A stretch of DNA of 45,681 bases, from IMG/VR virus record IMGVR_UViG_2563366991_000003; one strand, 5' to 3'. Made by a program: the position numbers and the translations under genes. Numbering within the stretch: position 1 is the stretch's first letter; each line of letters starts with the position of its first letter. Source of the stretch: a virus. Lineage: Duplodnaviria > Heunggongvirae > Uroviricota > Caudoviricetes. The notes under the pieces were generated by a model, which worked only from the letters and a program-made list of their open reading frames with translations, was not told the DNA's origin and made no database searches. This document shows, one piece after another, positions 1-23,613 of the stretch.

Positions 1-1236
1 CTACGATAACCGCGCATTCAACATGGCTACCTGTTCGTCGTTCATGTCATCAATCCACATACCGTAAATTTCATACACCATCTGCGCAGTTTCATGCCCC
101 ATCTGGCTGGCTATAAACGCCGGGTTCGCTCCTGCCGTCAACAGCCAGCAGGCAAAAGTATGCCGCGTATGGTACGGATTACGGCGGCGAATACCAGCAC
201 GTTTTACTGCTGCATTCCATCTCGCACCCAAACTGCTTACCGAGTAATAAGGTTTCTGTTTTCCGTTACACACTCTGGGCATGAAAACAAAATGCAGTTT
301 TTGCTTTTCGGTTCTGCCGTACTCCCGATGATAAAAAGTGATTTCGCTTTTGCGATGATGCCCGGTCAGTTTGTATTGCTCCTTCAGTGCTTCAAGAGCA
401 GGCTGCAGTAGTGTTACTGTCCGGATCCCGGCATTTGTTTTTGGGGGACCGAACATATCAAGTATCGTCAGGTTTCTTCTGACATTCACTATTCCCTTTT
501 CGAGATCCACATCCTCCCACGCCAGAGCTGCCAGTTCCCCGTGACGAAGTCCTGAGTAAACGGCAAATTTCCACAAGTTCTGGCTCTGTCCTTTTTCACT
601 TTCCATTAATGCATTGAATTCTGTTTTAGATAACGGATCAGGCTTTATTCTGTTTCGCTGTAATTTTTTTACTCCTTCAAATGGTTTGGTTGATATAAAT
701 CCCGACTGATACGCAAAACGCAACAGCGAACAGAGCAGGGCGATATAGTTATCAACTGTGCGCACGGTTCTTCCTTTTTTGTTGGATCTTGGATTATCCA
801 GGTAAAGCGTTTCTCCATGCAGCAGTTCATTCCGGTAGATTAAGATATCGCTATAACGAATATGTGATATCGGGGTACTTTCACAAATTATTATTCTGAG
901 TGTTTTTAATTGTGATTTCGTTTTCTTCATTGTGTTTGTTGTTAACTCTGTCTCTTTAATTTTTGTCCAGATATCACAAAGTTCTCCGAACGTTTTTATG
1001 ACTCTCGTTGTCACCATTTTTGCCCCAGTGCTGGACTGGGGAAAACGTCTTAAATACTCAAATTCACCGGAGTTTATTTCATGAACTATCAGCGATCTTA
1101 AATTTCCGGCCTTTTTAATATTACTGTTTGTAATCTCCCAGCCTTTTAATGTTTCCCGACATCGTTTTCCTCGAAACATGAACCAGATGCGAATGTATCT
1201 ACCTCTAATCTCGACACCTGTTGGTAATTTAGACAT
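1..1236 (-). CDS. intR: Phage integrase (tyrosine recombinase), Rac-type
   Basis: 411-aa ORF at the prophage left end with C-terminal tyrosine-recombinase motifs (R..HTRHT..Y region); position next to an excisionase-like gene. Confidence 0.9.
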   Translation of the reverse strand: MSKLPTGVEIRGRYIRIWFMFRGKRCRETLKGWEITNSNIKKAGNLRSLIVHEINSGEFEYLRRFPQSSTGAKMVTTRVIKTFGELCDIWTKIKETELTTNTMKKTKSQLKTLRIIICESTPISHIRYSDILIYRNELLHGETLYLDNPRSNKKGRTVRTVDNYIALLCSLLRFAYQSGFISTKPFEGVKKLQRNRIKPDPLSKTEFNALMESEKGQSQNLWKFAVYSGLRHGELAALAWEDVDLEKGIVNVRRNLTILDMFGPPKTNAGIRTVTLLQPALEALKEQYKLTGHHRKSEITFYHREYGRTEKQKLHFVFMPRVCNGKQKPYYSVSSLGARWNAAVKRAGIRRRNPYHTRHTFACWLLTAGANPAFIASQMGHETAQMVYEIYGMWIDDMNDEQVAMLNARLS

Positions 1237-1237
1237 A

Positions 1238-1477
1238 TCATGAGTCTTTGATAAACTGATTTATCTTTGGATAGTTGTACCAGATAATCCCTCGCTTACT
1301 GTCTGGCTTCCCTAAAGGAGATACTCGTTTGAAGTGGAAGCCTTCCACCCAACAGTTCTGGCGGTATGCTTCAATTTGTCTGGCCCCCAGACCAGTGCGA
1401 AGCATCAGGCCGTATTCAACCATCCACTCTTCATTAAAGATTACTTGTGCCATCGCATCACCTCTGGCAGGCGCCAA
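1238..1477 (-). CDS. Excisionase-like small protein (probable true start near 1453, [10 protein letters not shown]...)
   Basis: Small basic ORF immediately upstream of int on the same strand; recalled similarity to Rac ydaQ/xis. Confidence 0.55.
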
Positions 1478-1552
1478 TGTTAGACTGAAATTGACGCCCG
1501 ATGTTGATTATTAATAATCAGCTATGAAGTTTTAATTTGAATACAATGCAAT

Positions 1553-1813
1553 TCACGAGGACTGAAGTCTCTCGCAATTAAAATTTATCAGTTTTACTTT
1601 CTGCTCTCTGGAAACGGCTGCTTCTTTTTTACCTGAGAGCATTTTTTCGCATTCTGATTTCGTTAGTTTAGATTTTGAATATCTTGTCCAGTTAGTAGGA
1701 GTGCCACCTTCCTTTTCAATAGTGGCGGTAATTTTATACATGAACACCTCCATTATTATTTCCAGTGGTTCGTTTATTCCATCTTTCGAGTGCTTCTTTT
1801 TCACTTCCACCAT
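1553..1813 (-). CDS. Hypothetical early-region protein (ydaC-like); start probably an internal Met near 1741-1753
   Basis: ORF in the leftward early operon; 5' end overlaps the upstream Lar ORF, so an internal start is likely. Confidence 0.4.
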   Translation of the reverse strand: MVEVKKKHSKDGINEPLEIIMEVFMYKITATIEKEGGTPTNWTRYSKSKLTKSECEKMLSGKKEAAVSREQKVKLINFNCERLQSS

Positions 1814-1967
1814 AACCGGTTCGGGATTCGCATCCGTTACACTTCGCTCGGTAATATCCTGAAATGGCTTTCACCGTTACTGATGGACAACCACAAAATG
1901 GACATGGTTTAACATTGTCATATCTCATAATTTTTCTCATAAAAAATATTTCAAGTTGGCGGTGCAT
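1734..1967 (-). CDS. Lar-family restriction alleviation protein (zinc-ribbon)
   Basis: PCPFCG...C..C Cys-pair motif typical of the Lar/RalR family; sits upstream of recT as in Rac. Confidence 0.6.
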   Translation of the reverse strand: MHRQLEIFFMRKIMRYDNVKPCPFCGCPSVTVKAISGYYRAKCNGCESRTGYGGSEKEALERWNKRTTGNNNGGVHV

Positions 1968-1984
1968 TACACCGCCAGACTGAA

Positions 1985-2794
1985 TTATTCCTCTGAATTA
2001 TCGATTACACTGTATTCCCCGGTTAATACAGAGGAATCTGCAGGATCGATTGTCAGTGGTTCCTTTTCATCCATTGATACTGCACGCTGGATCTCAATTG
2101 ATACGGGCAGATATTTGAACAGGCGACGAATAGCTGTTTTCTTTGCCATTTCTTCCCAGTGAGTTACCCACGGCCCGTTATTACCAGCTTTACTCTGGCT
2201 GCGCACCAGCTCAATCTGTCTGCGCGTCATAACTTCAAACTGAGTACCTCCGTCTTTCAGTCTTGCGACAGCATAGACGTGGGTAACCGGGGCATCTTCG
2301 TTTTCTCCTGGGCGGTGTATTAACTTTTCATCAAGGCCAAATTCGAAATTAAATTCGTCACCTTCACGGACAACACGGGCTGACAGGCTGGCGATTTGAC
2401 CTGAACGGCGAGCCAGATCAATCATGCCGCGATAGCCAATGATTAGCTGAACGTTTTTTTTACCGCTCTTTTCGTTTTTATTACCAAAAGGCAGTAAATA
2501 TGCATGACCGAGGGCGCTACCTGGCTCAAGTCCGAGCTGTGAACACTGTACGATTGCACTGACAAAACTCATAGTGTCACAGTTTCCTAACGCCGGAACT
2601 TTACGAATTTCTGTGGTGGCGATACGGATCATACGTTCAGCCGTCATATGGCGTGGAAGAGCTGCTGCCAGTTGCTCTTTCATTGATGGCTGGTTAATAA
2701 AACTAATCACGTCGTTATTTTTAATTGCTGCTGGTGCACGGTTTTCCTGAGTTTTTTGCAGATCGGCTTTTGCGATTGGTGGTTGCTTAGTCAT
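1985..2794 (-). CDS. recT: RecT single-strand annealing recombinase
   Basis: Protein from [16 protein letters not shown]... matches recalled E. coli RecT nearly throughout; the ORF-track start at 2851 is an upstream extension. Confidence 0.9.
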
Positions 2795-5438
2795 TTGCAT
2801 ATTCCTTAGCCCAGCGGGGCAGTGATAACGTCTTAATAGCTGGCCATTCATCGGTATTGAGGCAGTCAGCCAGGGTTCGCAGATTGCGGTGATATTCCAG
2901 CTGACCTGCTAGTTTTGCTTCTTCGCCCATCATGAAAATTTCAACCGGATAACGTCCGCATTCAATAGTTGTGCTGGCAACCAGAAAAACGAAAGTTGGC
3001 TGCACTCCAAACTGTGCTTCATAACCGTCACTGTAGAATGCATCCTGAACGTGATAGCGGTAGTCGTAATAAGCGGTTTTGAATCGTTGAATATCCGCCG
3101 TAGTTTTCACGTCCATGATCCAGTGAAATTCAGGGATAATTTTGTCCGGACGGCACCGACACAAAATTCCTGTTTCAGGATCTTCCCAGTAAATTGATGA
3201 TTCAGCGTGTCCGGCGCTTTCAACAAGCCATTGCCCCAGCGGCAAAGCCATAACGCTTTGATACATCAGTTCAATTTTCCGGCCTTCTTCCGCAGTGATA
3301 ACCATTTTTCCTGTGCTTGCGCATTCCATCAGAAACGCTTTCTCTTCTTCTTTTCCGGCGTTTGTACGGCGGTTAAATTCAGGTGCTACGATAAAGCGGT
3401 TACTGAATTCTTCCGGTTCAAGTACCCGGCAGTGGAAAGCGGTTCCTAAATCGAGCGTTTTTGTCTTTGTGGTGTCCACGGGGGCATTTTTACGCCACAA
3501 ATACAGTGCCGGAGTATCAGCAATGTCATCGAGCTGAGACTTACTGACACCGGGACCTGCGTGGTAATTCTCATTCGAAATTCCGTAATAAATACCTGGC
3601 TCTATGTCTTCTACGATTACGGGATCTGCGACTTCGCCAGTTTCATCACTGCAATCGCGATGCGGATCGCTGCCAGCATTCTCATTGTGCGGATGTTCAG
3701 CGCCTTCCATTTCCTCCGGATCATTTTCCTTAGCTTCAACCTGATTCTCTTCATCGAATGTTTCCTGGTTTGTTGCGTCGCCCATCACCGCACCACAGTC
3801 AGGGCAGTTATCCCCGCCAGTCTGGCCGCAGGCATTGAAGGCTATTTCCGGTTCCTGTTGCACTACTGGCTCAGGTTGTTTCATATCCGGGCTGGTTTTT
3901 TCCGTTTCTGGCTGGTTCTGGTACACAGAATCGCGAGTCTGGATCCCCTTAACCCATTTCGGATCGTTCGGGTCGCTAATTCCGTCAACAAATTCACCAC
4001 GTGATGCAGCAAGCAATTTATCGGCATCGACAGGATTTTTTGATGGAATGTTTTTCCGAGCTTCATGGAGTTCTGCCCGCAGTTCCTGATATTTCGCATC
4101 AACAGAATTTACCTGTGACTGAGCATCCAGCGGCTGCGTGTCCTGATGATGTTTAGTTGCGTCCGGTTCCATTGTTTCAGCCTCTCCCTGTTCATCTGCC
4201 GTTGTTCCAGATGGTTGCAGTTTTTCTTCATCATCCTGTTTTCCTTCTTCTGTTACTCGCTGCGGCATCGGGGCAGAGGAGCGACCGCAGGCAATATCCA
4301 CGATTTCCGGATCAGGGTTGGCATGATCGGTTTCAGTCAGTACTTTGTTCAGATATGCAGTGACGTGAGCGGGGATGACCTCGATCCCAATTGGTGCTTC
4401 TTTCACGGACGCAACCACGATGGCGCGGGAATAATCCAGCCCGCCAGGCATGGTGATGAATTTGTCGCGGAAAACAGAAAAGGGCGGTTTATTTTCAGCG
4501 ATAATTTCCTCAATGCGTTTAGCGTGTGCCGGATGAAGGTTATAGATGTCCACGTCCATTGAACGGGCCAGTACGCCAGTGGCTATATCGCGCGCCAGTG
4601 ACGTCAGATCGTGGACGAAACCTTCGCCGCGATCTGTGAGGTTCCCGCCGCCAGCATTAGCACCGGAAGCCGTGCGAGTGATGCGTGAAACACGATTCCC
4701 TTTTCGCCATTCTTTTGTCAGAAGACCGCGATCAATGTGTTCGGTATCCAGCCAGGCTGAAATGAAATTCTTAAATTCATAGGGCTGATGTTTTTTAGTG
4801 ATAGAGAAAACTGCCTTAATTGCATCAGTCAGGCGGAGCAGGGCGGCATTATCCAGAGTTGTCGGTTCTGCCATGCCGCGTATGGCCAACAGCAGATTCT
4901 GGACATAGCTGTTTTCCTGATCCATCTCAAGAGCAGTAATGTGTTCGCGTTGTTCTCGGGTGGCATGATGCAGGTATTTCCGATCCCCGGCCGCATACGT
5001 AAAAATGTGCAGAAGACGCTGTGTGAACCGCAAAGTGGCTACAGAGACTTCGCAATCCTGGCAATCCTCGTGGGCGTCTGCCTGCGCGTTTTCTTCCTGG
5101 CCTCCCGCCAGTTCGTTGGTTTCTTGAGCATTATCCTGGTGGTGAACGTCGTCTGGCGCTGCTCCCGGTTTTAGTTCCCATGTCATGGAGTCTTTGCTGA
5201 GTTGATAGCGTTCACTCCAGGTAAAATCGATCTCACCTTCAGGGGGAAGGTCATTAACGACAGGAAAATTTGTGGCAACAGCTTTAAAATAGTTGCTCAG
5301 TTTTTTACCTGACTTAACGATCAGGTAGTCCAGAGTGGCACAGGTCGATTCAAAATCGTCGCTTGCCCACAGGACGACGTCAGGTTCACCGGATGATTTT
5401 TTCGCTTTCCGTAACAGGAAGAGTGGTTTTGTGCTCAT
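2787..5438 (-). CDS. recE: RecE exonuclease VIII
   Basis: 883-aa ORF whose 3' end overlaps the recT start (classic recE-recT coupling); acidic central region and C-terminal nuclease domain as in Rac RecE. Confidence 0.88.
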
Positions 5439-10294: not shown

Positions 10295-11056
10295 ATGGAG
10301 ACTGTTTTTGACGCACTGAAAGCAATGGGAAAAGCCACGTCGGTAGAACTGGCTGCGCGACTTGATATCAGTCGTGAAGAGGTACTGAACGAGCTGTGGG
10401 AGCTGAAAAAGGCTGGTTTCGTTGATAAAAGCGTATACACCTGGCGTGTGGCTGATAACAACGTTCAGCAGGAACAGCCAGAGCAGGCAGAACCGCCGGA
10501 AGAAACCACCACGGCAACAGTCGCGAAAATTTCGGAGTGCGATTTAACTGCGACGATTGAACAACGTGGACCACAAACGGCGGATGAGTTGGCTACATGG
10601 TTCGGTACCACATCACGCAAAGTGGCTTCAACGCTGGCAATGGCAATCAGCAAAGGTCGTCTGATTCGCGTTAATCAGAACGGTAAATTTCGTTACTGCA
10701 TACCGGGCGATAATTTACCAGCAAAGCCGAAAGCTGCATCGGTAACGGAAACTGATTTTAAAGCCTTTCCTCAGCCAGCAGATGTTGCGTTACCAGTACA
10801 GGAAGCTGCAACACAGGAAGATATTAAAACAGAAACTGTGGCGGACATTGTGCAGTCGCTGCCATCGTTTACTGAAACGCGAGCTGATGACCTGATTTTG
10901 CCATCGCTGCATATGGCAAACCGCGAACTGCGTCGGGCGAAAAATCATGTCCAGAAGTGGGAGCGAGTCTGCGCCGCGCTGCGGGAGCTGAACAAGCACC
11001 GGGATATTGTTCGACAGATTGCTGATTCTTCCCGCCGTGTTGTATCGGAAAAGTGA
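10295..11056 (+). CDS. Hypothetical phage protein (ydaW-like)
   Basis: ORF with GGAGG RBS before METVFDAL; the ORF-track start at 10244 overlaps ydaV. Confidence 0.45.
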
Positions 11057-11071
11057 TTGCCGGAGGCGCTT

Positions 11072-11503
11072 ATGGCAAAAGTATTTACACAAGAAGAGCG
11101 GGAAAAAATTAAAGGGCAGGTTGTTGAGCTAGTACGCCGGAGTGGACGCGAGACGTTACGACAACTGGAGGCCAAGACAGGTGCGACAAGATATCTGATG
11201 AGCGTTCTCGCCAGAGAGCTGGTTGCCAGTGGCGATGTATACAACTCTGGTTACGGGTTATTCCCGTCTGAACAGGCTCGTAAGGACTGGCAAAATGCCC
11301 GCAAAAAACTATCCAGGGCAAAGGTGAAGAAACCATCTGTGGTTGATCCGGACCTTATCTGGTCATTACCAGACGGAGAAATACGCCGCTACGACAGGCG
11401 TCTGAACATAATCTGTCGCGAGTGCCGGAAGAGTGAAGTTATGCAGCGTGTGCTGGCGTTTTATCAGAATGGTTTTCGAGAGAGGCTTGGAGATCAGGGA
11501 TGA
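11072..11503 (+). CDS. Hypothetical phage protein
   Basis: ORF after ydaW-like gene; RBS GGAGG before MAKVF; normal backbone GC. Confidence 0.4.
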   Translation: MAKVFTQEEREKIKGQVVELVRRSGRETLRQLEAKTGATRYLMSVLARELVASGDVYNSGYGLFPSEQARKDWQNARKKLSRAKVKKPSVVDPDLIWSLPDGEIRRYDRRLNIICRECRKSEVMQRVLAFYQNGFRERLGDQG

Positions 11504-11696
11504 ATAGAACGATGAAGGATGGAAGCTACATATTCTCGGTACTAAGATTTATTTTTCTGACACAAAATGACCATTTGGCGTTACATAATCCCAAAAAAAC
11601 GTATCAAAAATCTCAAAATGCGTTACGATTAGAGAGTATTTTGATTCTGCGTGCTCATTTTTTGATTGCTGTGGCTTTTTGTTGTGGGAGTGTTGA

Positions 11697-12851
11697 ATGG
11701 ATTATTTATCAGAAGTGTTAAAAATCATTGAAGGTGCAACAAAGGCAAATGCTTCGATGGCTAGTAATTATGCTGGGTTGCTGGCAGATAAGCTCGAACA
11801 AAAAGGGGAGGTCAAGCAAGCCAGAATGATAAGAGAAAGGTTGCTTAGAGCTCCCCAGGCGTTGGCAGGAGCTCAAAGGGCTGGAGGTGGGATATCTCTG
11901 GGCTCATTACCGGTAGATATTGATAGTCGACTCAACACTGTTGATGTCAGTTATCCTAAATTAGACAGTTCAGAGATTTTTCTGCCTGCAGCAATCAGTA
12001 CCCGTGTTGAAGAGTTTATCACTAATGTTCAACGTTATGATGAGTTTGTTAAAGCTGATGCAGCATTGCCGAGTCGTATGCTCGTGTATGGAAAGCCAGG
12101 AACAGGTAAGACTATGTTATCTAAGTACATCGCTACCCGCTTAGATTTTCCACTTCTTACAGTGCGTTGCGATACTTTGATTAGTAGTTTATTGGGACAA
12201 ACCAGCAAAAATCTTAGACAGGTTTTCGATTATGTAATGCAGAGGCCATCAGTGCTTTTTTTAGACGAATTTGATGCTTTAGCTGGAGCAAGAGGTAATG
12301 AGAGAGATATAGGTGAGCTTCAGCGAGTTGTCATTTCACTATTGCAGAATATGGATGCGGCATCAGAGGATACGGTAATTATTGCCTCAACTAACCATGA
12401 GCAACTTCTGGATCCTGCAATCTGGAGGCGATTTAGCTTCAGAATTCCAATGCCTCTGCCTGACATACATCAGAGAGAGTTAATTTGGAAAAATCGTTTA
12501 AAGAATATGATATGTAGCGATCTAGATTTAAGTGATTTATCAAGAAAATCGGAAGGATTATCCGGAGCAATAATTGAACAGGTGAGCTTGGATGCACGTA
12601 GGGATGCAGTTATTGAAGGTGCAAGTGTGATAAATCACCATAAATTGTATAGGCGTTTGTATCTTGCTCAATCGCTTATGGAAGGTGTAAATTTAAGCAC
12701 TTACGAAGATGAAATTCGTTGGTTACGTTCTAAAGATAAAAAATTATTTTCTATCAGAGTTCTTGCTAATTTGTACAAACTTACATCAAGAGTAATTTCA
12801 AACATTCTGAAGGAGTCAGGAGCATATGAGCAGAAGGGGTACACAGTTTAG
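11697..12851 (+). CDS. AAA+ ATPase (IetA-like candidate)
   Basis: Walker A VYGKPGTGKT, Walker B VLFLDEFD, sensor-1 ASTNH, Arg-finger-like RRF; AT-rich codon usage distinct from flanking genes; GGGAG RBS. Confidence 0.85.
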   Translation: MDYLSEVLKIIEGATKANASMASNYAGLLADKLEQKGEVKQARMIRERLLRAPQALAGAQRAGGGISLGSLPVDIDSRLNTVDVSYPKLDSSEIFLPAAISTRVEEFITNVQRYDEFVKADAALPSRMLVYGKPGTGKTMLSKYIATRLDFPLLTVRCDTLISSLLGQTSKNLRQVFDYVMQRPSVLFLDEFDALAGARGNERDIGELQRVVISLLQNMDAASEDTVIIASTNHEQLLDPAIWRRFSFRIPMPLPDIHQRELIWKNRLKNMICSDLDLSDLSRKSEGLSGAIIEQVSLDARRDAVIEGASVINHHKLYRRLYLAQSLMEGVNLSTYEDEIRWLRSKDKKLFSIRVLANLYKLTSRVISNILKESGAYEQKGYTV

Positions 12852-13713
12852 TAACGCAAAAGTTACAAACCCAATGTTAAGAATCCCTTTTTCCAGTAGT
12901 GACTTGGGTGCAATAGTAAACGCTGGCGGTGGGGCAAAGGTATTGGTTGATGTAACAGCCGAATATAGACAAGGGCTAGTAAGAAATTTAACAACCAGTA
13001 AACATTATTTAGAATCCAAACTTTCAGAGTACCCTGGAAGCTTGGGTACTTTGGTTTTCAAATTAAGAGACCAGGGAATAGCCAAAACGCATAGGCCGAA
13101 CAAAATTGCTCAAGAGGCTGGATTGCAAAATGCCGGTCATGCCAAAATAGATGAAATGTTGGTTGCTGCTCATGCCGGCTGTTTTGACGTATTAGAGTCA
13201 GTCATTTTACATCGGAATATTAAAGCGATTTTGGCTAATCTAAGCGCGATTGAGCGCATTGAACCTTGGGATGAGAATAGGAAGGTTCCAGGAGGCACTG
13301 ATGGTTTGTTTGAATCATCAAACATCCTTGTACGACTATTTGAGTACACAGGTGAAGATGCAACTTACAACAACTATGAAAACGTTATTTCTATATTAGA
13401 ACAACACGGAGTTAAATATGATGAGATTAGACAAAAATGTGGTCTTCCCTTATTAAGGATAATGGATTTATCCCCAAATGATAGATATATATTAGACATT
13501 CTCATTGATTACCCGGGTATAAGAACGTTAATTCCTGAACCAAAATATTCAGCATTCCCGGTTAGTGTAAGTGATTCTGTTGGCATTGAAACAAATAGCT
13601 TTCCCGTACCATCAGAAGAATTACCCATTGTTGCTGTATTTGACACTGGGGTAAGCCCCATCGCGGCAACAATTACTCCTTGGGTAGTGAGGGTAATGAC
13701 TCCAACTTATTGA
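12826..13713 (+). pseudogene. S8 subtilisin-like serine protease, N-terminal fragment (IetS-like candidate) ending in IS1
   Basis: Start overlaps the ATPase stop by 26 nt with an AGGAG RBS; contains the catalytic Asp motif AVFDTGV just before the IS1 junction; the last 7 codons read into IS1. Confidence 0.8.
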
Positions 13714-14210
13714 TAGTGTTTTATGTTCAGATAATGCCCGATGACTTTGTCATGCAGCTCCACCGATTTTGAGAACGACAGCGACTTCCGTCCCAGCCGT
13801 GCCAGGTGCTGCCTCAGATTCAGGTTATGCCGCTCAATTCGCTGCGTATATCGCTTGCTGATTACGTGCAGCTTTCCCTTCAGGCGGGATTCATACAGCG
13901 GCCAGCCATCCGTCATCCATATCACCACGTCAAAGGGTGACAGCAGGCTCATAAGACGCCCCAGCGTCGCCATAGTGCGTTCACCGAATACGTGCGCAAC
14001 AACCGTCTTCCGGAGCCTGTCATACGCGTAAAACAGCCAGCGCTGGCGCGATTTAGCCCCGACATAGCCCCACTGTTCGTCCATTTCAGCGCAGACAATC
14101 ACATCACTGCCCGGCTGTATGCGCGAGGTTACCGACTGCGGCCTGAGTTTTTTAAGTGACGTAAAATCGTGTTGAGGCCAACGCCCATAATGCGGGCTGT
14201 TGCCCGGCAT
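13707..14210 (-). CDS. insB: IS1 InsB (made as InsAB' by frameshift)
   Basis: 167-aa ORF overlapping the insA 3' end in another frame, inside IS1. Confidence 0.9.
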
Positions 14211-14404
14211 CCAACGCCATTCATGGCCATATCAATGATTTTCTGGTGCGTACCGGGTTGAGAAGCGGTGTAAGTGAACTGCAGTTGCCATGTTTTACGG
14301 CAGTGAGAGCAGAGATAGCGCTGATGTCCGGCGGTGCTTTTGCCGTTACGCACCACCCCGTCAGTAGCTGAACAGGAGGGACAGCTGATAGAAACAGAAG
14401 CCAC
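14129..14404 (-). CDS. insA: IS1 InsA
   Basis: 91-aa ORF with Cys-rich zinc finger and HTH, inside IS1. Confidence 0.9.
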
Positions 14405-14459
14405 TGGAGCACCTCAAAAACACCATCATACACTAAATCAGTAAGTTGGCAGCATCACC

Positions 14460-15867
14460 GGTAGTGAGTAGGGAAACATACGTAATTCCTCCTGATACGA
14501 GTTATGAACATGGGACTATGGTGTCTTCATTGATATCAGGCGCTCATTTTTTAAATGACAATCATCCATGGATTCCTGATACAAAATCTAAAATCCATGA
14601 TGTTTGTGCCTTAGATGAAAATGGATCTTATATATCAGATTTAATTCTGAGGCTAGCAGATGCTGTAAATAAAAGACCAGATATAAAAGTCTGGAATTTG
14701 TCTTTGGGAGGCGGACCATGTAATGAGCAGACGTTTAGTGATTTTGCGATGGAGTTAGATCGGCTCAGCGATAAATTTGGTATTTTGTTTGTAGTTGCTG
14801 CAGGTAATTATGTAGATGAACCTATACGTACATGGCCAAATCCTGATCCGCTTGGAGGTGCTGATTTAATTTCCTCTCCTGGAGAGTCAGTCCGAGCACT
14901 AACAGTTGGTTCAGTTTCTCATATGGAAGCTAATGATGCTTTAAGTGAAATTGGAACACCGACACCATATACTCGTCGTGGCCCTGGGCCTGTATTTACT
15001 CCAAAGCCAGATATAATCCATGCTGGCGGTGGGGTTCATAGACCTTGGAATGTAGGAGCAAGCAGTTTAAAGGTCGTAGGGCCAGATAATAGGCTTTGCT
15101 CTAATTTTGGTACTAGTTTTGCTGCTCCAATTGTGGCAAGTTTAGCTGCGCATACATGGCAGAGAATAGCCACTAATACAGACTTTAATGTTTCACCATC
15201 ATTGATTAAAGCATTATTAATTCATTCCGCTCAATTATCTTCTCCTGATTACTCGCCAAGTGAAAGACGCTATTTGGGAGCGGGAATTCCTAATGAAGTT
15301 ATTGAGACCTTATATGATAGTGATGATAGGTTTACTCTGATTTTCCAAACATTCTTGGTTCCTGGGGTGAGGTGGAGAAAGGATAACTATCCCATACCAT
15401 CGGCACTTATTCAAAATGGAAAATTTAAAGGTGAGATTGTAATTACTGCTGCATATGCACCACCACTGAACCCTAATGCCGGCAGTGAATATGTTCGCGC
15501 GAACGTAGAGCTAAGTTTTGGCTTAATTGAGAATAATACTATAAAAGGAAAAGTGCCTATGGAAGGAGAAAACGGTCAATCTGGATATGAGAGAGCTCAA
15601 ATTGAGCATGGTGGAAAGTGGTCACCAGTAAAAATTCATCGCAAGGCATTTAATAAAGGAATTACTTCGGGTAACTGGGCTCTTCAGGCTAAAACAACGT
15701 TGAGAGCGAATGAACCGGCCTTAATGGAGCCTTTACCTGTAACTATTGTAGTAACTTTAAAATCATTAGATGGAAACACACAAGTTTATGCTGATGGCGT
15801 AAGAGCTTTAAATGCTAATAACTGGGCTCACTATCCATTGCCTGCTCGTGTGCCAGTTTCCGTATAA
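14460..15867 (+). pseudogene. S8 subtilisin-like serine protease, C-terminal fragment
   Basis: Same frame as the N-terminal fragment once IS1 and one repeat copy are removed (..TPWVV|SRETYVIPP..); His motif HGTMVSS, Ser motif GTSFAAP, and VAAGNY oxyanion region. Confidence 0.8.
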
Positions 15868-15881
15868 CAACTATATAAATC

Positions 15882-15910
15882 AAACCCGCTGTAGCGGGTT
15901 TGATTTATTT
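15882..15910 (+). terminator. Rho-independent terminator after the protease gene
   Basis: aacccgc-tgta-gcgggtt hairpin followed by a T-rich tract. Confidence 0.5.
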
Positions 15911-16280
15911 GTGGGTGTGTTTTATAAAAATACCGCCCATACACAACAAAATACAAAAAGTATTATAGATAAAAAAGGAACGTAATGTGCAGATTTGTTG
16001 TTTTCCATATTTACTCACCTTAATATGATTAACCCTGATAGGGTTGTTATTTCAGCGGTTTTCAAATGAGATATTATGGTGATCTGGCAGATTTGCATAA
16101 CATTAAAATTTAATTTGTTTAACCGCTTTTAATAATAAGCGTTGTTTGTATCCCAGCAATCTGTTTTTTGGTTTTTATTCCATTAAGGTGGGGCTTTACA
16201 CTGGAGCCAGTTTATTTATACTTCATACGTCAGCCTGAACAACTGGCATCTGCTGCGCTGCGCCATCGAGAGATTAAGAA

Positions 16281-16880
16281 ATGGCGCATATACAACTGGT
16301 CAAACAAACCTCTTCCGGATTACTTCTCCCGGCGACGCCGGAGAGTTGTGATTTTCTGCATCAAATCAAAATAGGCGAGTGGATACACGCAGACTTTAAG
16401 CGTGTGCGTAACTACGCATTCCACAAGCGTTTTTTCAAACTCCTGCAACTGGGATTCGATTACTGGACTCCGGTCGGTGGGGCGATCACGCCTCGCGAAC
16501 GAGAACTGCTGTCTGGTTTCGTTGATTACCTGTGCGAATCAGTTGGTCGGGAACACACGCCAGCCCTGAGTGATGCCGCAGAGCAATATCTGAATACAGT
16601 TGCGACACGCAGAACCCGGGATACGGCATTGCTAAAGTCGTTTGAGGCTTTTCGCGAGTGGGTAACCATTCAGGCTGGATTTTACACCGAACATTTTTAT
16701 CCGGACGGTAGCCGCGGGCGTCGGGCAAAATCTATCGCTTTTGCGAATATGGACGAAACCGAGTTTCAGCAGGTTTATAAATCTGTTCTGAATGTGCTGT
16801 GGAACTGGATTCTGTTCCGTAAATTTTCCTCTCCGGAACAAGTCGAAAATGTGGCCGCGCAGCTGCTGGAGTTTGCGTAA
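16281..16880 (+). CDS. Nin-region protein (DUF1367-like)
   Basis: 199-aa ORF between the replication and Q modules; family assignment from recall only. Confidence 0.45.
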   Translation: MAHIQLVKQTSSGLLLPATPESCDFLHQIKIGEWIHADFKRVRNYAFHKRFFKLLQLGFDYWTPVGGAITPRERELLSGFVDYLCESVGREHTPALSDAAEQYLNTVATRRTRDTALLKSFEAFREWVTIQAGFYTEHFYPDGSRGRRAKSIAFANMDETEFQQVYKSVLNVLWNWILFRKFSSPEQVENVAAQLLEFA

Positions 16881-17170
16881 TGGTGGATTTACGTAAAGCG
16901 GCGCGGGGGCGGATGTGCACCGTCAGAATTCTTGGCTACTGCAATCACGATCCGGAAACGTCTGTGCTGGCGCATTACCGACTGGCGGGAACGTGCGGAA
17001 CAGCGACAAAACCACACGATATGCAGGCGGCGATTGCCTGTAGCTCATGCCACGATTTAATCGACGGGCGGGTAAAAACAAGCGATTACACCAAAGAAGA
17101 TTTACGCCTGATGCATGCAGAAGGTGTTTTTCGCACGCAAGAAATCTGGAGAAAGGAAGGTTATTTATGA
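16880..17170 (+). CDS. YbcO-like Cys-rich protein (DUF1364, putative nuclease)
   Basis: 96-aa ORF with C..C...C..SSCHD Cys/His cluster; start overlaps the upstream stop. Confidence 0.5.
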   Translation: MVDLRKAARGRMCTVRILGYCNHDPETSVLAHYRLAGTCGTATKPHDMQAAIACSSCHDLIDGRVKTSDYTKEDLRLMHAEGVFRTQEIWRKEGYL

Positions 17171-17709
17171 TTTACCCAACAAATACAGGCAAAAGCGGGG
17201 AACACCTTCGTCTCACCACGCTGGAAAGTGTCTGGATTCAGGGAAAACTGCGCATGTGGGGGCGCTGGTCGTATATTGGCGGCGGTAAGACGGGGAATAT
17301 GTTCAACCAGTTGTTGGCCTCTAAAAAGCTGACAAAAACGGCAATTAACGAGGCGCTCCGGAGGATGAAAAAAGCAGGTCTGAACAAGTCTGAACTTGAG
17401 GCTTTTTTGCGGGATATGATTAACGGTAAGCAAAAGAGCTGGCTGGCGCATTGTACTGATGCAGAGGCGTTATGTATTGATCGGGTCATAAGTGAGGTGC
17501 TGGCAGAGCATCCAGGATTGATTAGCGTCCTTCGGCAACGGTATGAGGGGCGGGGGATGACCAAACGCAAAATGGCTGAATTGCTAAATGATGCACACCC
17601 AGAGTGGTGTTTTAGCACATGCGAAAAGCGAATTGCTAATTGGTTGGCCGTTGCTGAGTATGCGCTATACATTCCCATGCGAGAATCATTCGCTCAAAAA
17701 ACGGCTTGA
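17167..17709 (+). CDS. Putative late-gene antiterminator (Q-like) by position
   Basis: 180-aa ORF from MIYPTN with AGGAAGG RBS; last gene before the AT-rich late promoter region and lysis genes. The longer ORF-track start at 17047 overlaps the previous gene. Confidence 0.45.
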   Translation: MIYPTNTGKSGEHLRLTTLESVWIQGKLRMWGRWSYIGGGKTGNMFNQLLASKKLTKTAINEALRRMKKAGLNKSELEAFLRDMINGKQKSWLAHCTDAEALCIDRVISEVLAEHPGLISVLRQRYEGRGMTKRKMAELLNDAHPEWCFSTCEKRIANWLAVAEYALYIPMRESFAQKTA

Positions 17710-17794
17710 TTTTTTACGCATAAACTGCTTCAATTTTGCTACGCTTCGCAAAGCTGTATCGCGAGGCGAATCAAGCGCAATTAAACTTTAATAG

Positions 17795-17825
17795 AACCCG
17801 CCATCGAGCGGGTTTTGTTGTTTCT
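17795..17825 (+). terminator. Hairpin plus T-tract downstream of the Q-like gene
   Basis: cccgc-catcga-gcggg stem-loop followed by ttttgttgttt. Confidence 0.4.
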
Positions 17826-18062
17826 GTGGTGTGATATCAGAAACGACATTTAATCATCGCCTTCAAAATAAATTTATTTATATGTTGTTGTATATATTTT
17901 AAGTGAAAGTGAATTATTCACATAAAATAAAAACATATAAATAAATTTACATAACTTGACGCAAAGTGTTGTTGCGATTGGAATATTAAATCGTATTATC
18001 GAAAACGGTTCTGAGGGGGAACTCTTCTTTGCTCGGTGATATCGCTCCCCTGAAGAACCAAT

Positions 18063-18138
<76 letters not shown>

Positions 18139-18141
18139 TAT

Positions 18142-18216
<75 letters not shown>

Positions 18217-18574
18217 GAGAAACAAGCCTTATTGTATCGTGGCACTGGCGTATTTTTTATTACGTGGGGTGGGTTGTTTTAAAAAGACAATCCGTTCTCT
18301 GACTATGATTGGAGGTCGGTTGTAGTCACAGTGCTAATTTTTTTACGGCAGCAGAATGGTGCATTATCGGTGGAGATTTTGTATTTCCTGGCAGGGTCGG
18401 TGATGCATCATTCTGGTGTTGTAAAAGCACCGCAGAGGTGTTCCTCAGTGCGAGGGTGGTTTAGATAGTGGTTTGGCGGGGAATCACAATATCTGTTGTA
18501 GAGATGGATATTTCGGGAGGCACCCGACACCTCGATTCTTATTACAATAAAATGATTTATCTCATGCAGTGACC

Positions 18575-20164: not shown

Positions 20165-20301
20165 AATCTTAACTACAATATGATTCATTTTGATGATTGT
20201 TTCATAAGGAACAGTGAAGTAAGATCTAAGAGGAGTTAAATTTTATACAGTATAATCATAATATTGCAGCAAGGTGGTTATAATTGAAAGAATATTTAGA
20301 T

Positions 20302-21759
20302 ATGAATACATCTCATGTAAGAGTTGTTACTCATATGTGTGGGTTCCTGGTTTGGCTCTATAGTCTTTCAATGTTGCCACCAATGGTTGTAGCATTGTTT
20401 TATAAAGAAAAAAGCCTGTTCGTTTTCTTTATAACTTTCGTTATATTTTTTTGCATTGGTGGCGGAGCGTGGTATACAACTAAGAAATCTGGCATTCAAT
20501 TACGTACCCGTGATGGGTTTATTATAATTGTAATGTTTTGGATTTTGTTTTCTGTTATTAGTGCATTCCCTTTATGGATTGACTCAGAACTTAATTTAAC
20601 GTTCATTGATGCTCTGTTTGAAGGGGTTTCTGGAATAACAACAACAGGAGCAACTGTAATTGATGATGTTAGTTCATTACCTCGGGCATATTTGTACTAT
20701 CGGTCACAGTTAAATTTTATAGGTGGTTTAGGAGTTATTGTTCTGGCGGTTGCTGTATTGCCATTATTGGGTATTGGTGGTGCAAAGCTTTATCAGTCAG
20801 AAATGCCGGGGCCATTTAAGGATGACAAACTCACTCCCCGCCTGGCCGATACGTCACGGACACTGTGGATAACTTATTCTTTATTAGGTATTGCTTGTAT
20901 TGTCTGTTATAGACTTGCAGGAATGCCTTTGTTTGATGCTATTTGTCACGGGATTTCCACAGTTTCGCTTGGTGGTTTCTCAACTCATAGCGAGAGTATC
21001 GGATATTTTAATAACTATTTGGTTGAGCTGGTGGCTGGTTCTTTTTCCCTGCTATCGGCTTTCAACTTCACTCTTTGGTATATTGTTATTAGCAGGAAAA
21101 CGATAAAACCTTTAATCAGAGATATTGAACTTCGTTTCTTTCTGTTAATAGCCTTAGGGGTGATCATTGTTACCTCTTTCCAGGTCTGGCATATAGGTAT
21201 GTATGACTTGCATGGAAGTTTTATTCATTCGTTTTTTCTTGCCAGCTCCATGCTCACTGATAATGGTTTAGCTACGCAGGATTATGCAAGTTGGCCCACG
21301 CACACGATAGTGTTTTTGCTGTTGTCAAGTTTCTTTGGGGGATGTATAGGTTCAACTTGTGGTGGAATTAAGTCACTTCGATTTCTTATACTTTTCAAAC
21401 AAAGCAAACACGAGATAAATCAGCTTTCTCATCCCAGAGCGTTGTTGAGTGTAAATGTAGGAGGGAAGATAGTTACAGATCGTGTAATGAGGTCTGTATG
21501 GAGTTTCTTTTTTCTTTATACTCTCTTCACGGTGTTTTTTATACTGGTGTTAAATGGTATGGGATATGATTTTCTTACATCATTTGCAACAGTGGCTGCA
21601 TGTATTAATAATATGGGATTAGGTTTTGGGGCTACTGCATCGTCATTCGGAGTGCTTAATGACATTGCAAAATGTTTAATGTGCATAGCTATGATTCTTG
21701 GTCGCCTTGAAATTTATCCTGTTATTATATTGTTTTCAGGTTTTTTTTGGCGCTCCTAA
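20302..21759 (+). CDS. trkG: TrkG potassium uptake protein (Trk family membrane transporter)
   Basis: Polytopic membrane protein with repeated pore-loop GxG motifs (TTTGATV, GLGVIV); matches recalled Rac TrkG starting MNTSHVRVVTHMCGF. Confidence 0.9.
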   Translation: MNTSHVRVVTHMCGFLVWLYSLSMLPPMVVALFYKEKSLFVFFITFVIFFCIGGGAWYTTKKSGIQLRTRDGFIIIVMFWILFSVISAFPLWIDSELNLTFIDALFEGVSGITTTGATVIDDVSSLPRAYLYYRSQLNFIGGLGVIVLAVAVLPLLGIGGAKLYQSEMPGPFKDDKLTPRLADTSRTLWITYSLLGIACIVCYRLAGMPLFDAICHGISTVSLGGFSTHSESIGYFNNYLVELVAGSFSLLSAFNFTLWYIVISRKTIKPLIRDIELRFFLLIALGVIIVTSFQVWHIGMYDLHGSFIHSFFLASSMLTDNGLATQDYASWPTHTIVFLLLSSFFGGCIGSTCGGIKSLRFLILFKQSKHEINQLSHPRALLSVNVGGKIVTDRVMRSVWSFFFLYTLFTVFFILVLNGMGYDFLTSFATVAACINNMGLGFGATASSFGVLNDIAKCLMCIAMILGRLEIYPVIILFSGFFWRS

Positions 21760-21896: not shown

Positions 21897-22688
21897 ATGA
21901 GCGAGAAATTAAAGATAGTCTATCGCCCATTACAAGAATTGTCACCGTATGCGCACAACGCCAGGACGCACAGCCCTGAGCAGGTGGCACAACTGGTAGA
22001 AAGTATTAAGCAATTCGGCTGGACTAATCCGGTGCTGATTGACGAAAAGGGCGAAATTATTGCGGGTCACGGTCGTGTTATGGCGGCTGAAATGCTCAAA
22101 ATGGATTCTGTTCCGGTCATTGTTCTGTCTGGCCTGACGGATGAGCAGAAAAAGGCGTACCGCCTGGCAGATAATCGCCTGCCGATGAATGCTGGCTGGG
22201 ATGAAGATCTGTTGCGGATGGAGCTGTCGGACCTAATCAATGCTGATTTTGATGTCTCCCTGACAGGCTTCATCCCGACAGAAATTGATGAACTGTTGAC
22301 GGATGTTTTGCCCGGTACAGGAAATGAGGAGGAGCCGTATACGACGAAAATTGATACGCCTGTTTATGAGCCGTCGGGCGGTAAACCGGATATCAGTGAA
22401 CTGTACGACGATACGAAAACTCAGGAGCTGATCAGCCGGATACGTTCGGCGTCCCTTGAGCCTGATATTGAGAAATTCCTCCTGTGTGCGGCAGAACGTC
22501 ACACGGTGTTTAATTTCAGCAGAATTGCGGACTATTACGCTCACGCCCCCTCTGAAATTCAGTGTTTTTTCGAGGAGTCGGCGCTGGTGATCATTGATTA
22601 TCAGCAGGCTATTGAAAATGGATTTGTCCGGATGACGCAGCGCATGGTGGAGATCATGCATGGTGGTGAGGAGGAGGAATATGCGTGA
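21897..22688 (+). CDS. ParB-like nuclease domain protein (ynaK-like)
   Basis: N-terminal ParB/Srx-like motifs (AGHGRV, RLADNRL); located just upstream of the packaging genes. Confidence 0.65.
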   Translation: MSEKLKIVYRPLQELSPYAHNARTHSPEQVAQLVESIKQFGWTNPVLIDEKGEIIAGHGRVMAAEMLKMDSVPVIVLSGLTDEQKKAYRLADNRLPMNAGWDEDLLRMELSDLINADFDVSLTGFIPTEIDELLTDVLPGTGNEEEPYTTKIDTPVYEPSGGKPDISELYDDTKTQELISRIRSASLEPDIEKFLLCAAERHTVFNFSRIADYYAHAPSEIQCFFEESALVIIDYQQAIENGFVRMTQRMVEIMHGGEEEEYA

Positions 22689-23613
22689 TGATTTTTGCGC
22701 CTTTATTCTGACTCACGGGCGACCGGACAAAGTTCTGACTTACCGGACGTTGCGTCGTGCTGGCTATACCGGGAAAATTTTTATCGTTGTTGATGATGAA
22801 GATAAGACACGGAATCAGTACATGGCTGAATTTGGTGAACAGGTGCTGGTGTTTTCCAAAGCCGATATCGCCAGTCGTTTTGACGAAGCCGATAATTTCT
22901 GTGACCGCCGCTCAATTTTTTACGCCCGTAATGCCTGTTTCGACCTGGCAAAACTGGTCGGGTGTAAATACTTCATTCAGCTCGATGATGATTATCACGA
23001 GTTCCAGTTTCGGGTGGATCGCAACTATGACCAGGCCTATTTTCCGATAAGGAAACTGGATGCGATCCTTTCTGAAATGCTGGCGTACTACGAATCAATA
23101 CCTGCTCTTTCCATCGCTATGTCGCAGGGCGGGGATTTTCTTGGTGACAATGGCGGCCATGCTTCGTGGGTGAAACGCAAGGCAATGAACAGCTTTATCT
23201 GTTCGGTTGATCGACCGTTCTCATTCATGGGGCGCATTAACGAGGATGTGAATACGTACACGAATCTCGGTCGCTGTGGTGAATTGTTTATGACGATCGG
23301 TGCTGTCCAGTTAGGGCAGAAACAGACGCAGAAAAACAGCGGCGGAATGACCGAGCTGTATCTGGATTCCGGAACCTACGTTAAAAGTTTTTACTCCGTC
23401 ATGTATGCGCCGTCGTGCGTAAAAATCTCACTGATGGGTGCCAGCCATAAACGCATTCACCATCAGGTCACCTGGAACAACGCTGCAGTAAAAATCCTTC
23501 ACGAAAAATACAGGAAGAAGACACCCTGCATATCAATGGGGGTGACAAATGATTCCGTATTCGAAAGTCGAGTCTCTGGCAGCGTGCCGGATGACTGCAC
23601 AACAAATCGCTGA
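22681..23613 (+). CDS. Hypothetical protein, possibly a GT-A-like transferase fold
   Basis: Start overlaps the ParB-like stop by 8 nt with a GAGGAGGA RBS; acidic DxD-like motifs VVDDED and QLDDDYHEF; no firm family assignment. Confidence 0.45.
   Translation: MRDDFCAFILTHGRPDKVLTYRTLRRAGYTGKIFIVVDDEDKTRNQYMAEFGEQVLVFSKADIASRFDEADNFCDRRSIFYARNACFDLAKLVGCKYFIQLDDDYHEFQFRVDRNYDQAYFPIRKLDAILSEMLAYYESIPALSIAMSQGGDFLGDNGGHASWVKRKAMNSFICSVDRPFSFMGRINEDVNTYTNLGRCGELFMTIGAVQLGQKQTQKNSGGMTELYLDSGTYVKSFYSVMYAPSCVKISLMGASHKRIHHQVTWNNAAVKILHEKYRKKTPCISMGVTNDSVFESRVSGSVPDDCTTNR

Follow-up and report, generated by a model that had tools for sequence, protein, structure and literature searches.

The window, the whole 45,681-nucleotide stretch of viral DNA analysed here, contains two adjacent genes on the same strand in an operon arrangement, an AAA+ ATPase gene (ietA) followed by an S8 protease gene (ietS), the latter split by an IS1 element (Table 1). 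The ietA and ietS reading frames share 26 nt, and AGGAG-type Shine-Dalgarno sequences are found immediately 5' of the ietS ATG; both junction features named in the original prediction were found.

Table 1. Features of the ietAS cassette and of the IS1 element within it (window coordinates)
Feature	Position	Strand	Description
AT-rich leader of cassette	11575-11696	+	similarity to a Citrobacter ietAS cassette (L011) starts at 11575 (blastn)
ietA (iteA)	11697-12851	+	intact; 384-aa classical AAA+ ATPase; putative antitoxin/regulator component
ietS (iteS), whole span	12826-15867	+	S8 protease gene, IS1-split
ietS 5' part	12826-13691	+	residues 1-288/289; N-terminal domain and catalytic Asp273
Target duplication, left copy	13683-13691		9 bp, GGTAGTGAG; repeat spacing 777
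IS1	13692-14459	-	768 bp; 23-nt terminal inverted repeats; PF03400 DDE_Tnp_IS1; 99% identical to IS1 in phage P1 and SfIV
IS1 insB	13707-14210	-	
IS1 insA	14129-14404	-	
Target duplication, right copy	14460-14468		9 bp, GGTAGTGAG
ietS 3' part	14469-15867	+	residues 289/290-754; His303, Asn402, Ser505, C-terminal beta-sandwich domain
Hairpin	15875-15908		perfect 15-bp stem, 8 nt past the ietS stop codon, then T-rich tail

The predicted 384-aa ATPase was recovered as an open reading frame with all its proposed motifs in place: Walker A GKPGTGKT (Lys-138), Walker B LFLDEFD (Asp-190/Glu-191) and sensor-1 STNH (Asn-233), together with Arg-244/Arg-245. IetA matched the NCBIfam model NF042959 (IteA) at 526.6 bits over positions 1-367 of 367, above the equivalog cut-off of 510 bits, and the PADLOC model PDLC02196 over 1-371 of 374 (E=8.9e-143), as well as Pfam AAA (E=2.6e-30). 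Profile and PDB sequence searches placed p97/Cdc48 D2, PAN and FtsH as its nearest relatives. By sequence, IetA is a member of the classical p97/PAN/FtsH-type AAA clade and falls outside the phage replication and packaging families, as the original prediction required. All 384 residues are identical to RefSeq IteA WP_000385105.1.

Joining 12826-13691 to 14469-15867, which removes IS1 and one target duplicate, restored an in-frame ietS open reading frame of 754 aa, where about 755 aa had been estimated. The subtilisin Asp, His and Ser motifs expected in the repaired protein were located at Asp-273, His-303 and Ser-505, along with the oxyanion-hole Asn-402 (AAGN), and these four residues are invariant across 48 IetS homologues of 50-99% identity. 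Repaired IetS scored 1043.4 bits against NCBIfam NF042956 (IteS; equivalog cut-off, 900 bits), aligned over 1-747 of 747, and matched PADLOC PDLC02197 full-length (E=8.3e-301) and Pfam PF00082 (Peptidase_S8; E=4.6e-26). It is identical at 754 of 754 positions to iteS in two loci (L001 and L002) and to RefSeq IteS WP_001551050.1. Subtilases with C-terminal beta-sandwich domains, KP-43 protease (1wmd) and Tk-SP (3afg), are among the closest known relatives of IetS; the PDB sequence search returned generic subtilases and p97/PAN ATPases only, with no solved member of the IetA or IetS family. A full-text literature search for WP_001551050 and WP_000385105 found no mention of either. The proposed match of the ATPase and S8 protease pair to the IetAS architecture is therefore borne out by the NCBIfam, PADLOC and Pfam profiles.

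The GC content is 40% in the cassette, 47-49% in the flanks and 53% in IS1, confirming that the two genes are more AT-rich than their surroundings. A promoter-like AT-rich leader had been proposed at 11500-11696. The region is indeed AT-rich, but a sigma-70 consensus scan of its + strand found no sigma-70-like site, which leaves AT-richness as the evidence for a promoter; the conserved leader that starts at 11575 presumably contains the native ietA promoter together with a GGGAG ribosome-binding site. A 73-aa open reading frame at 11500-11721, annotated as 'kinase (fragment)' in ON470595, was considered as a third gene and rejected: it lacks both a Pfam match and a PGAP call, and part of it falls outside the conserved cassette. 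At the other end, the hairpin predicted past ietS is present and is likely a (bidirectional) terminator. An Rfam scan of 11000-18500 yielded two tRNAs and sub-threshold noise only.

The cassette sits between replication genes (DUF1627, DUF977) and nin/Q-type genes (DUF1367, YbcO, DUF1133), with ietA directly following the DUF977 gene. Five other lambdoid prophages carry different cargo in the slot downstream of the DUF977 gene, in agreement with the cargo hotspot originally suggested, and the cassette is AT-rich cargo in a variable slot of a Rac-type E. coli prophage. Intact copies, for which the original prediction had proposed a survey of Rac-like prophages, were found in 78 genomes among 5,426 complete E. 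coli assemblies; in these the repaired cassette is single-copy, chromosomal and uninterrupted at >=99.5% nucleotide identity; ietS is free of any insertion in all 78. Among the 40 copies listed, iteA is annotated in all 40 and iteS in 39. In both neighbourhoods inspected (266917_2 and B19695) the cassette closely follows the DUF977 gene, in the same Rac slot, and in 266917_2 the prophage adjoins intR/ttcA. The 266917_2 cassette is identical to window positions 11575-15910 once IS1 and one target duplicate are taken out. Phage vB_EcoS-683R6 carries a cassette 100% identical to the repaired version.

For more distant relatives, a genome-contig search with IetA alone gave one locus, in a Citrobacter MAG (91%/84% amino-acid identity). 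As a single contig locus was too few, co-occurrence was assessed from tblastn matches in plasmid and phage collections. An S8 gene lies directly downstream of the distant IetA homologue, in the same order, in six of the seven sampled loci: an Acidovorax plasmid, pTiKerr108, a Klebsiella IncFIA plasmid, Pf phage PfAC08, Enterobacter phage phiT5282H and Paenibacillus phage Yyerffej. Together with the 78 complete genomes, these loci support the expected co-occurrence of intact homologues. Rhodobacter phage AAA ATPases were rejected as IetA, being 34-35% identical over the core only and having no S8 neighbour. The same survey bears on whether the pair might instead serve phage morphogenesis or replication, for example as a prohead protease partnered by a chaperone or a packaging ATPase, as its position inside a prophage and downstream of replication genes could suggest. 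We give this virtually no credence: the top-scoring profiles are defence equivalogs, and neither a prohead-protease nor a terminase family matched; plasmids and a filamentous Pf phage carry the pair too, and SGI1 has the homologous SgiAT (PMC5006074); other lambdoid prophages lack the pair at the slot; and its GC content sets it apart as foreign cargo. The profile searches and the variable-slot survey effectively refute this reading.

The insertion in ietS has the length, terminal inverted repeats, insA/insB genes and 9-bp target duplication of IS1, and lies after codon ~289, between Asp-273 and His-303. ietA is whole and ietS is interrupted, so the window does not hold both genes intact. Because IS1 parts the catalytic Asp from His, Asn and Ser, the copy in the window is predicted from its sequence to be non-functional, with the toxin dead and the antitoxin gene retained; the interruption bears on function and leaves family membership unaffected. 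The 5' open reading frame runs into IS1 and stops at 13713, giving a truncated 295-aa product that has exact matches on at least 21 public contigs. One carrier of this product, GCA_000351705.1, matches the window at 100% identity along 20.9 kb. The IS1 allele is probably a decayed defence module stably inherited in an E. coli lineage. The 3' fragment, which holds His-303, Asn-402 and Ser-505, appears to be without an evident start or promoter of its own.

Could the locus work despite IS1, either by reassembly of the IetS fragments or with the C-terminal fragment alone as an active protease? Both ietS fragments remain open reading frames, that of the 3' part reading from 14446 to 15867, and many contigs preserve the allele. 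Even so, we consider such activity very improbable, given that the invariant Asp-273 and the other catalytic residues (His, Asn and Ser) are in separate polypeptides, that the only start for the 3' fragment is a TTG inside the IS1 end with no promoter-like site leading into the fragment, and that ietS in the 78 complete genomes is without insertions. With high confidence we identify the locus as an IS1-inactivated copy of the known IetAS system (IteAS in the NCBI spelling), carried as cargo of a Rac-type E. coli prophage. The original prediction of an IetAS-like candidate defence module was right about the family; IetAS here is an already described system rather than a new candidate, RefSeq annotating identical genes, and this copy is predicted to be non-functional.

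Compared with IetAS/IteAS (Gao et al. 2020), the locus has the same two genes, order and overlapping junction and full-length equivalog-level matches, the sole difference being the IS1 in ietS. The founding pair, IetA/IetS of pTiC58 (Yamamoto et al. 2009), likewise has an AAA+ ATPase gene followed by that of a large S8 peptidase, and a Ti-plasmid homologue pair was found in pTiKerr108. The relationship is distant, however: the ATPase is ~36% identical over the core, the protease gave no tblastn match at E<=1e-5, and the Ti system has a plasmid context and a longer protease (836 aa). Salmonella Genomic Island 1, an integrated mobile element, carries the homologous pair SgiAT (S026/S025). In E. 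coli its subtilisin was shown to be a toxin that the ATPase antitoxin neutralises (PMC5006074), but the pair was characterised for island maintenance rather than phage defence. ietHAS (Liu-DS4) shares the IetA and IetS modules and adds an SNF2 helicase, ietH, absent from the window; its defence needs protease activity, and ietA mutants were not constructible (PMC13069673).

In pTiC58 and SGI1 the protease is the toxin and the ATPase the antitoxin (PMC5006074; PMC13069673, citing Yamamoto 2009), and defence needs protease activity (PMC13069673, citing Gao 2020). For homologues, expression of the phage protein YosG triggers toxicity, and cultures infected at high multiplicity fit abortive infection rather than survival (bioRxiv 10.1101/2022.08.27.505566). 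In E. coli, ietAS is carried on a prophage, and ECOR52 ietAS alone gave limited protection only, in one 29-phage panel (bioRxiv 10.1101/2022.08.21.504612). By analogy with these homologues, an intact version of the present E. coli allele would protect against phage. IetS, shown elsewhere to be a cytoplasmic S8 serine protease that is toxic unless IetA neutralises it, may cleave proteins of the host, the phage or both. Like its p97/PAN relatives acting on their substrates, IetA probably regulates IetS by ATP-dependent remodelling; we infer this unfoldase role because PMC13069673 and PMC11878078 leave substrates, restraint and sensing open.

Alternatively, the pair might serve chiefly to stabilise the prophage by addiction (post-segregational killing). 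pTiC58 IetAS and SGI1 SgiAT were characterised as stabilisation toxin-antitoxin systems (PMC5006074; PMC13069673), and homologues are plentiful on conjugative plasmids (389 of 614 plasmid records). But the two roles are not mutually exclusive, family members have been shown to defend against phage (Gao 2020 as cited in PMC13069673; 10.1101/2022.08.27.505566), the Acidovorax plasmid pair adjoins a Shedu nuclease in a defence-island context, and SgiAT with its own putative promoter caused no post-segregational killing (PMC5006074). We therefore regard a primarily addictive role as rather unlikely, though plausible, and keep the assignment to IetAS defence.

In B19695 ietS has a second break, an apparent CCCC-to-CCC deletion 35 nt before the IS1 site, with ietA intact; this allele and the spread of the IS1 allele over its 21 or more contigs hint that loss of the toxin alone might be a selected state. 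Intact IetA, possibly with the 295-aa N-terminal fragment of IetS, would then act as an orphan antitoxin or 'anti-addiction' factor that neutralises the IetS of incoming IetAS phages and plasmids or relieves an autoimmunity cost. We judge this very improbable.

As a discovery the locus with its IS1-inactivated IetAS copy has little value, since IetAS is already named, profiled (PADLOC, NCBIfam) and tested. The copy in the window should be annotated as an ietS pseudogene, inactivated by IS1, beside an intact ietA, and defence-system callers will miss or miscall a copy split in this way. In this natural allele the toxin is null and the antitoxin intact, and the 78 complete genomes offer intact alleles isogenic to it; the two could be a handy control pairing for dissecting the IetAS mechanism.

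Profile searches unambiguously identified the ATPase and the repaired protease (IS1 and one 9-bp target duplicate removed in silico) as IetA and IetS of the IetAS anti-phage system, spelled IteAS by NCBI. IetA scored 526.6 bits on the NCBIfam equivalog NF042959 'anti-phage ATPase IteA' (cut-off 510) and repaired IetS 1043.4 bits on NF042956 'S8 family anti-phage peptidase IteS' (cut-off 900), both aligned end to end. The PADLOC models (E=8.9e-143 for IetA, E=8.3e-301 for IetS) and Pfam (AAA and Peptidase_S8, respectively) agreed. Repaired IetS (754/754 residues) and IetA (384/384) are identical to their counterparts in E. coli 266917_2 (WP_001551050.1, WP_000385105.1) and in phage vB_EcoS-683R6. 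Thus, the original observation and its IetAS interpretation stand, but not the 'candidate' status: this is an already described, routinely annotated defence/toxin-antitoxin system, and the window holds a pseudogene copy of it, disrupted by IS1. Intact copies do exist, as megablast recovered the IS1-free cassette from 78 of 5,426 complete E. coli genomes, always uninterrupted, chromosomal, single-copy and at least 99.5% identical. Among the copies listed, iteA is annotated in 40/40 and iteS in 39/40, the exception being strain B19695.

The ORF list and motif reading bore out the gene layout and all motifs originally quoted. IetA carries Walker A (K138), Walker B (D190/E191), sensor-1 (N233) and R244/R245. 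An in-frame IetS of 754 residues (originally ~755) results when 12826-13691 is joined to 14469-15867; its catalytic residues are Asp273, His303, Asn402 (AAGN oxyanion hole) and Ser505. The cassette is indeed AT-rich (40% GC; the flanks have 47-49% and IS1 has 53%), and the hairpin first placed at 15882-15910 is present. The proposed 'promoter-like leader' found no support, since a sigma-70 consensus scan of the plus strand returned zero sites in 11500-11696. A 73-aa ORF linking the end of the DUF977 gene to the start of ietA is labelled 'kinase (fragment)' in record ON470595 and called in several assemblies; it is probably spurious because it has no Pfam match and no PGAP call and lies only partly inside the conserved cassette. 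In the spacer downstream of ietS, the sole Rfam match was sub-threshold (NrrF, E=0.088). A minus-strand promoter-like site there faces the minus-strand reading of the hairpin, and the two could delimit a short antisense transcript.

Features of the IetAS locus and neighbouring prophage cargo
Feature	Coordinates	Strand	Details
73-aa ORF	11500-11721	+	probably spurious
Mobile cassette limits	11575-15858		
ietA	11697-12851	+	384-aa ORF (ORF list)
ietS 5' part	starts 12826	+	26-nt overlap with ietA; runs into minus-strand insA/insB
Target duplication GGTAGTGAG	13683-13691 and 14460-14468		9-bp direct repeat flanking IS1
IS1	13692-14459		768 bp, 23-nt terminal inverted repeats (sequence reading, repeat finding)
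ietS 3' part	ends 15867	+	further ORF beyond IS1
Spacer	15868-16280		413 bp, 35% GC, between ietS and DUF1367 gene; beyond Citrobacter-shared cassette
Hairpin	15875-15908		perfect 15-bp stem, then T-rich tail
Promoter-like site	15991->15962	-	10/12 match
tRNA-Thr(TGT), tRNA-Gly(TCC)	18063-18216	+	tandem, between Q-like gene and lysis cassette
trkG	20284-21759	+	potassium transporter
ParB_N gene and TAGT gene	21897-23613	+	overlapping; ParB_N protein 263 aa

The window is a Rac-type prophage. Its annotated twin in E. coli 266917_2, 99.9-100% identical to window 1-28000 outside IS1, reads intR (abutting ttcA), xisR, ralR, recT, recE, kilR, racR, ydaS/T/U/V, DUF1627 and DUF977 genes, then iteA, iteS, DUF1367, DUF1364 (YbcO), a DUF1133 Q-like gene, two tRNAs, lysis genes, trkG and terminase genes. 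The stretch just after DUF977 is occupied by quite different cargo in five other lambdoid prophages (QueH, an alpha/beta hydrolase, a methyltransferase remnant or small-ORF sets), followed in each by hokD, and no complete genome had both cassette-flanking genes within ~1 kb of each other; both results support the proposed cargo slot. A Citrobacter MAG carries a related pair (91%/84% amino-acid identity), likewise directly after a DUF977 gene, and the extent of its nucleotide similarity to the window sets the mobile cassette limits. Further along, the prophage carries trkG as cargo beyond its lysis genes, matching the twin. Just upstream of the terminase genes, a ParB_N-domain gene overlaps one with a strong match to Pfam TAGT ('TET-associated glycosyltransferase', E=8e-35); together they may form a module for DNA modification or anti-restriction in the Rac-type prophage.

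Co-occurrence of ATPase and protease extends to distant relatives. Among seven distant IetA matches sampled from plasmid and phage collections (30-53% identity), an S8 peptidase gene (700-840 aa) lies directly downstream in six: an Acidovorax plasmid, pTiKerr108, a Klebsiella IncFIA plasmid, the filamentous Pf phage PfAC08, the P2-like Enterobacter phage phiT5282H and Paenibacillus phage Yyerffej. The remaining match, in Rhodobacter phage RcSwan, is confined to the AAA core and evidently represents a different ATPase. On Acidovorax sp. T1 plasmid p1-T1 (2673-8585), the pair (53%/52% identity to the window proteins) has an integrase gene on one side and a Shedu immune nuclease gene on the other; two IS21 copies enclose the whole segment, making it a small mobile defence island. 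In the PfAC08 record (216-3526) the deposited notes carry the two names the wrong way round, calling the ATPase IetS and the S8 peptidase IetA. Of the 310 homologues (E <= 1e-10) returned by the IetS protein search, 120 were listed; nearly all of these are full-length (708-771 aa), with the named ones from Gamma- and Betaproteobacteria. Aligning 48 listed homologues (50-99% identity) showed an invariant triad and oxyanion Asn, with N- and C-terminal regions also well conserved.

The AlphaFold2 model of intact IetS (pLDDT 83, pTM 0.86) predicts an alpha/beta N-terminal region (~250 residues), a subtilase core and a C-terminal beta-sandwich. Sequence search of the PDB found no structure of either family; the closest solved relatives of IetA are p97/Cdc48 D2, PAN/Rpt and FtsH-type AAA modules, all substrate-remodelling ATPases. 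IetA may hold IetS in check by ATP-dependent engagement or remodelling, possibly contacting its conserved N-terminal region; a phage-encoded trigger would then free the protease to degrade essential host and/or phage proteins. For pTiC58 and SGI1 (SgiAT), PMC5006074 and PMC13069673 (citing Yamamoto 2009) assign the toxin role to the protease and the antitoxin role to the ATPase; PMC13069673 also states, citing Gao 2020, that ietAS protects against phages and needs protease activity. B. cereus ietAS acts as an abortive-infection system and is toxic upon expression of SPbeta YosG, which yosG escape mutations relieve (bioRxiv 10.1101/2022.08.27.505566). In E. coli, where ietAS is typically prophage-borne, the ECOR52 system alone gave limited protection and synergized with Zorya II against T3 (bioRxiv 10.1101/2022.08.21.504612).

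The IS1 in the window, 99% identical to IS1 of phage P1 and SfIV records, interrupts ietS after codon ~289. The 295-aa N-terminal product keeps Asp273 as its sole catalytic residue; His303, Asn402 and Ser505 lie downstream of IS1, and the scan found no promoter-like site reading into that part. On this sequence evidence, the IetAS copy should be inactive. The disruption is not an assembly artefact, because the exact truncated product occurs on at least 21 public contigs (three NCBI assemblies and a number of sequencing runs among them) and GCA_000351705.1 scaffold KB732813.1 matches window 2826-23713 at 100% identity; a search of the 5,426 complete RefSeq E. coli genomes did not find the IS1 allele in any of them. 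In the complete genome of B19695 (locus L024, 1552-3815), a CCCC run at the position of window 13656, shortly after the catalytic Asp and only 35 nt from the IS1 site, has lost 1 nt, which breaks iteS into ORFs of 286 and 449 aa. This could mean that the toxin gene was inactivated independently a second time, or it could reflect a homopolymer sequencing error. The antitoxin gene is intact in both, and in the window identical to the reference. Such a pattern, toxin lost and antitoxin kept, is the one expected of a decaying module under toxin-antitoxin logic.
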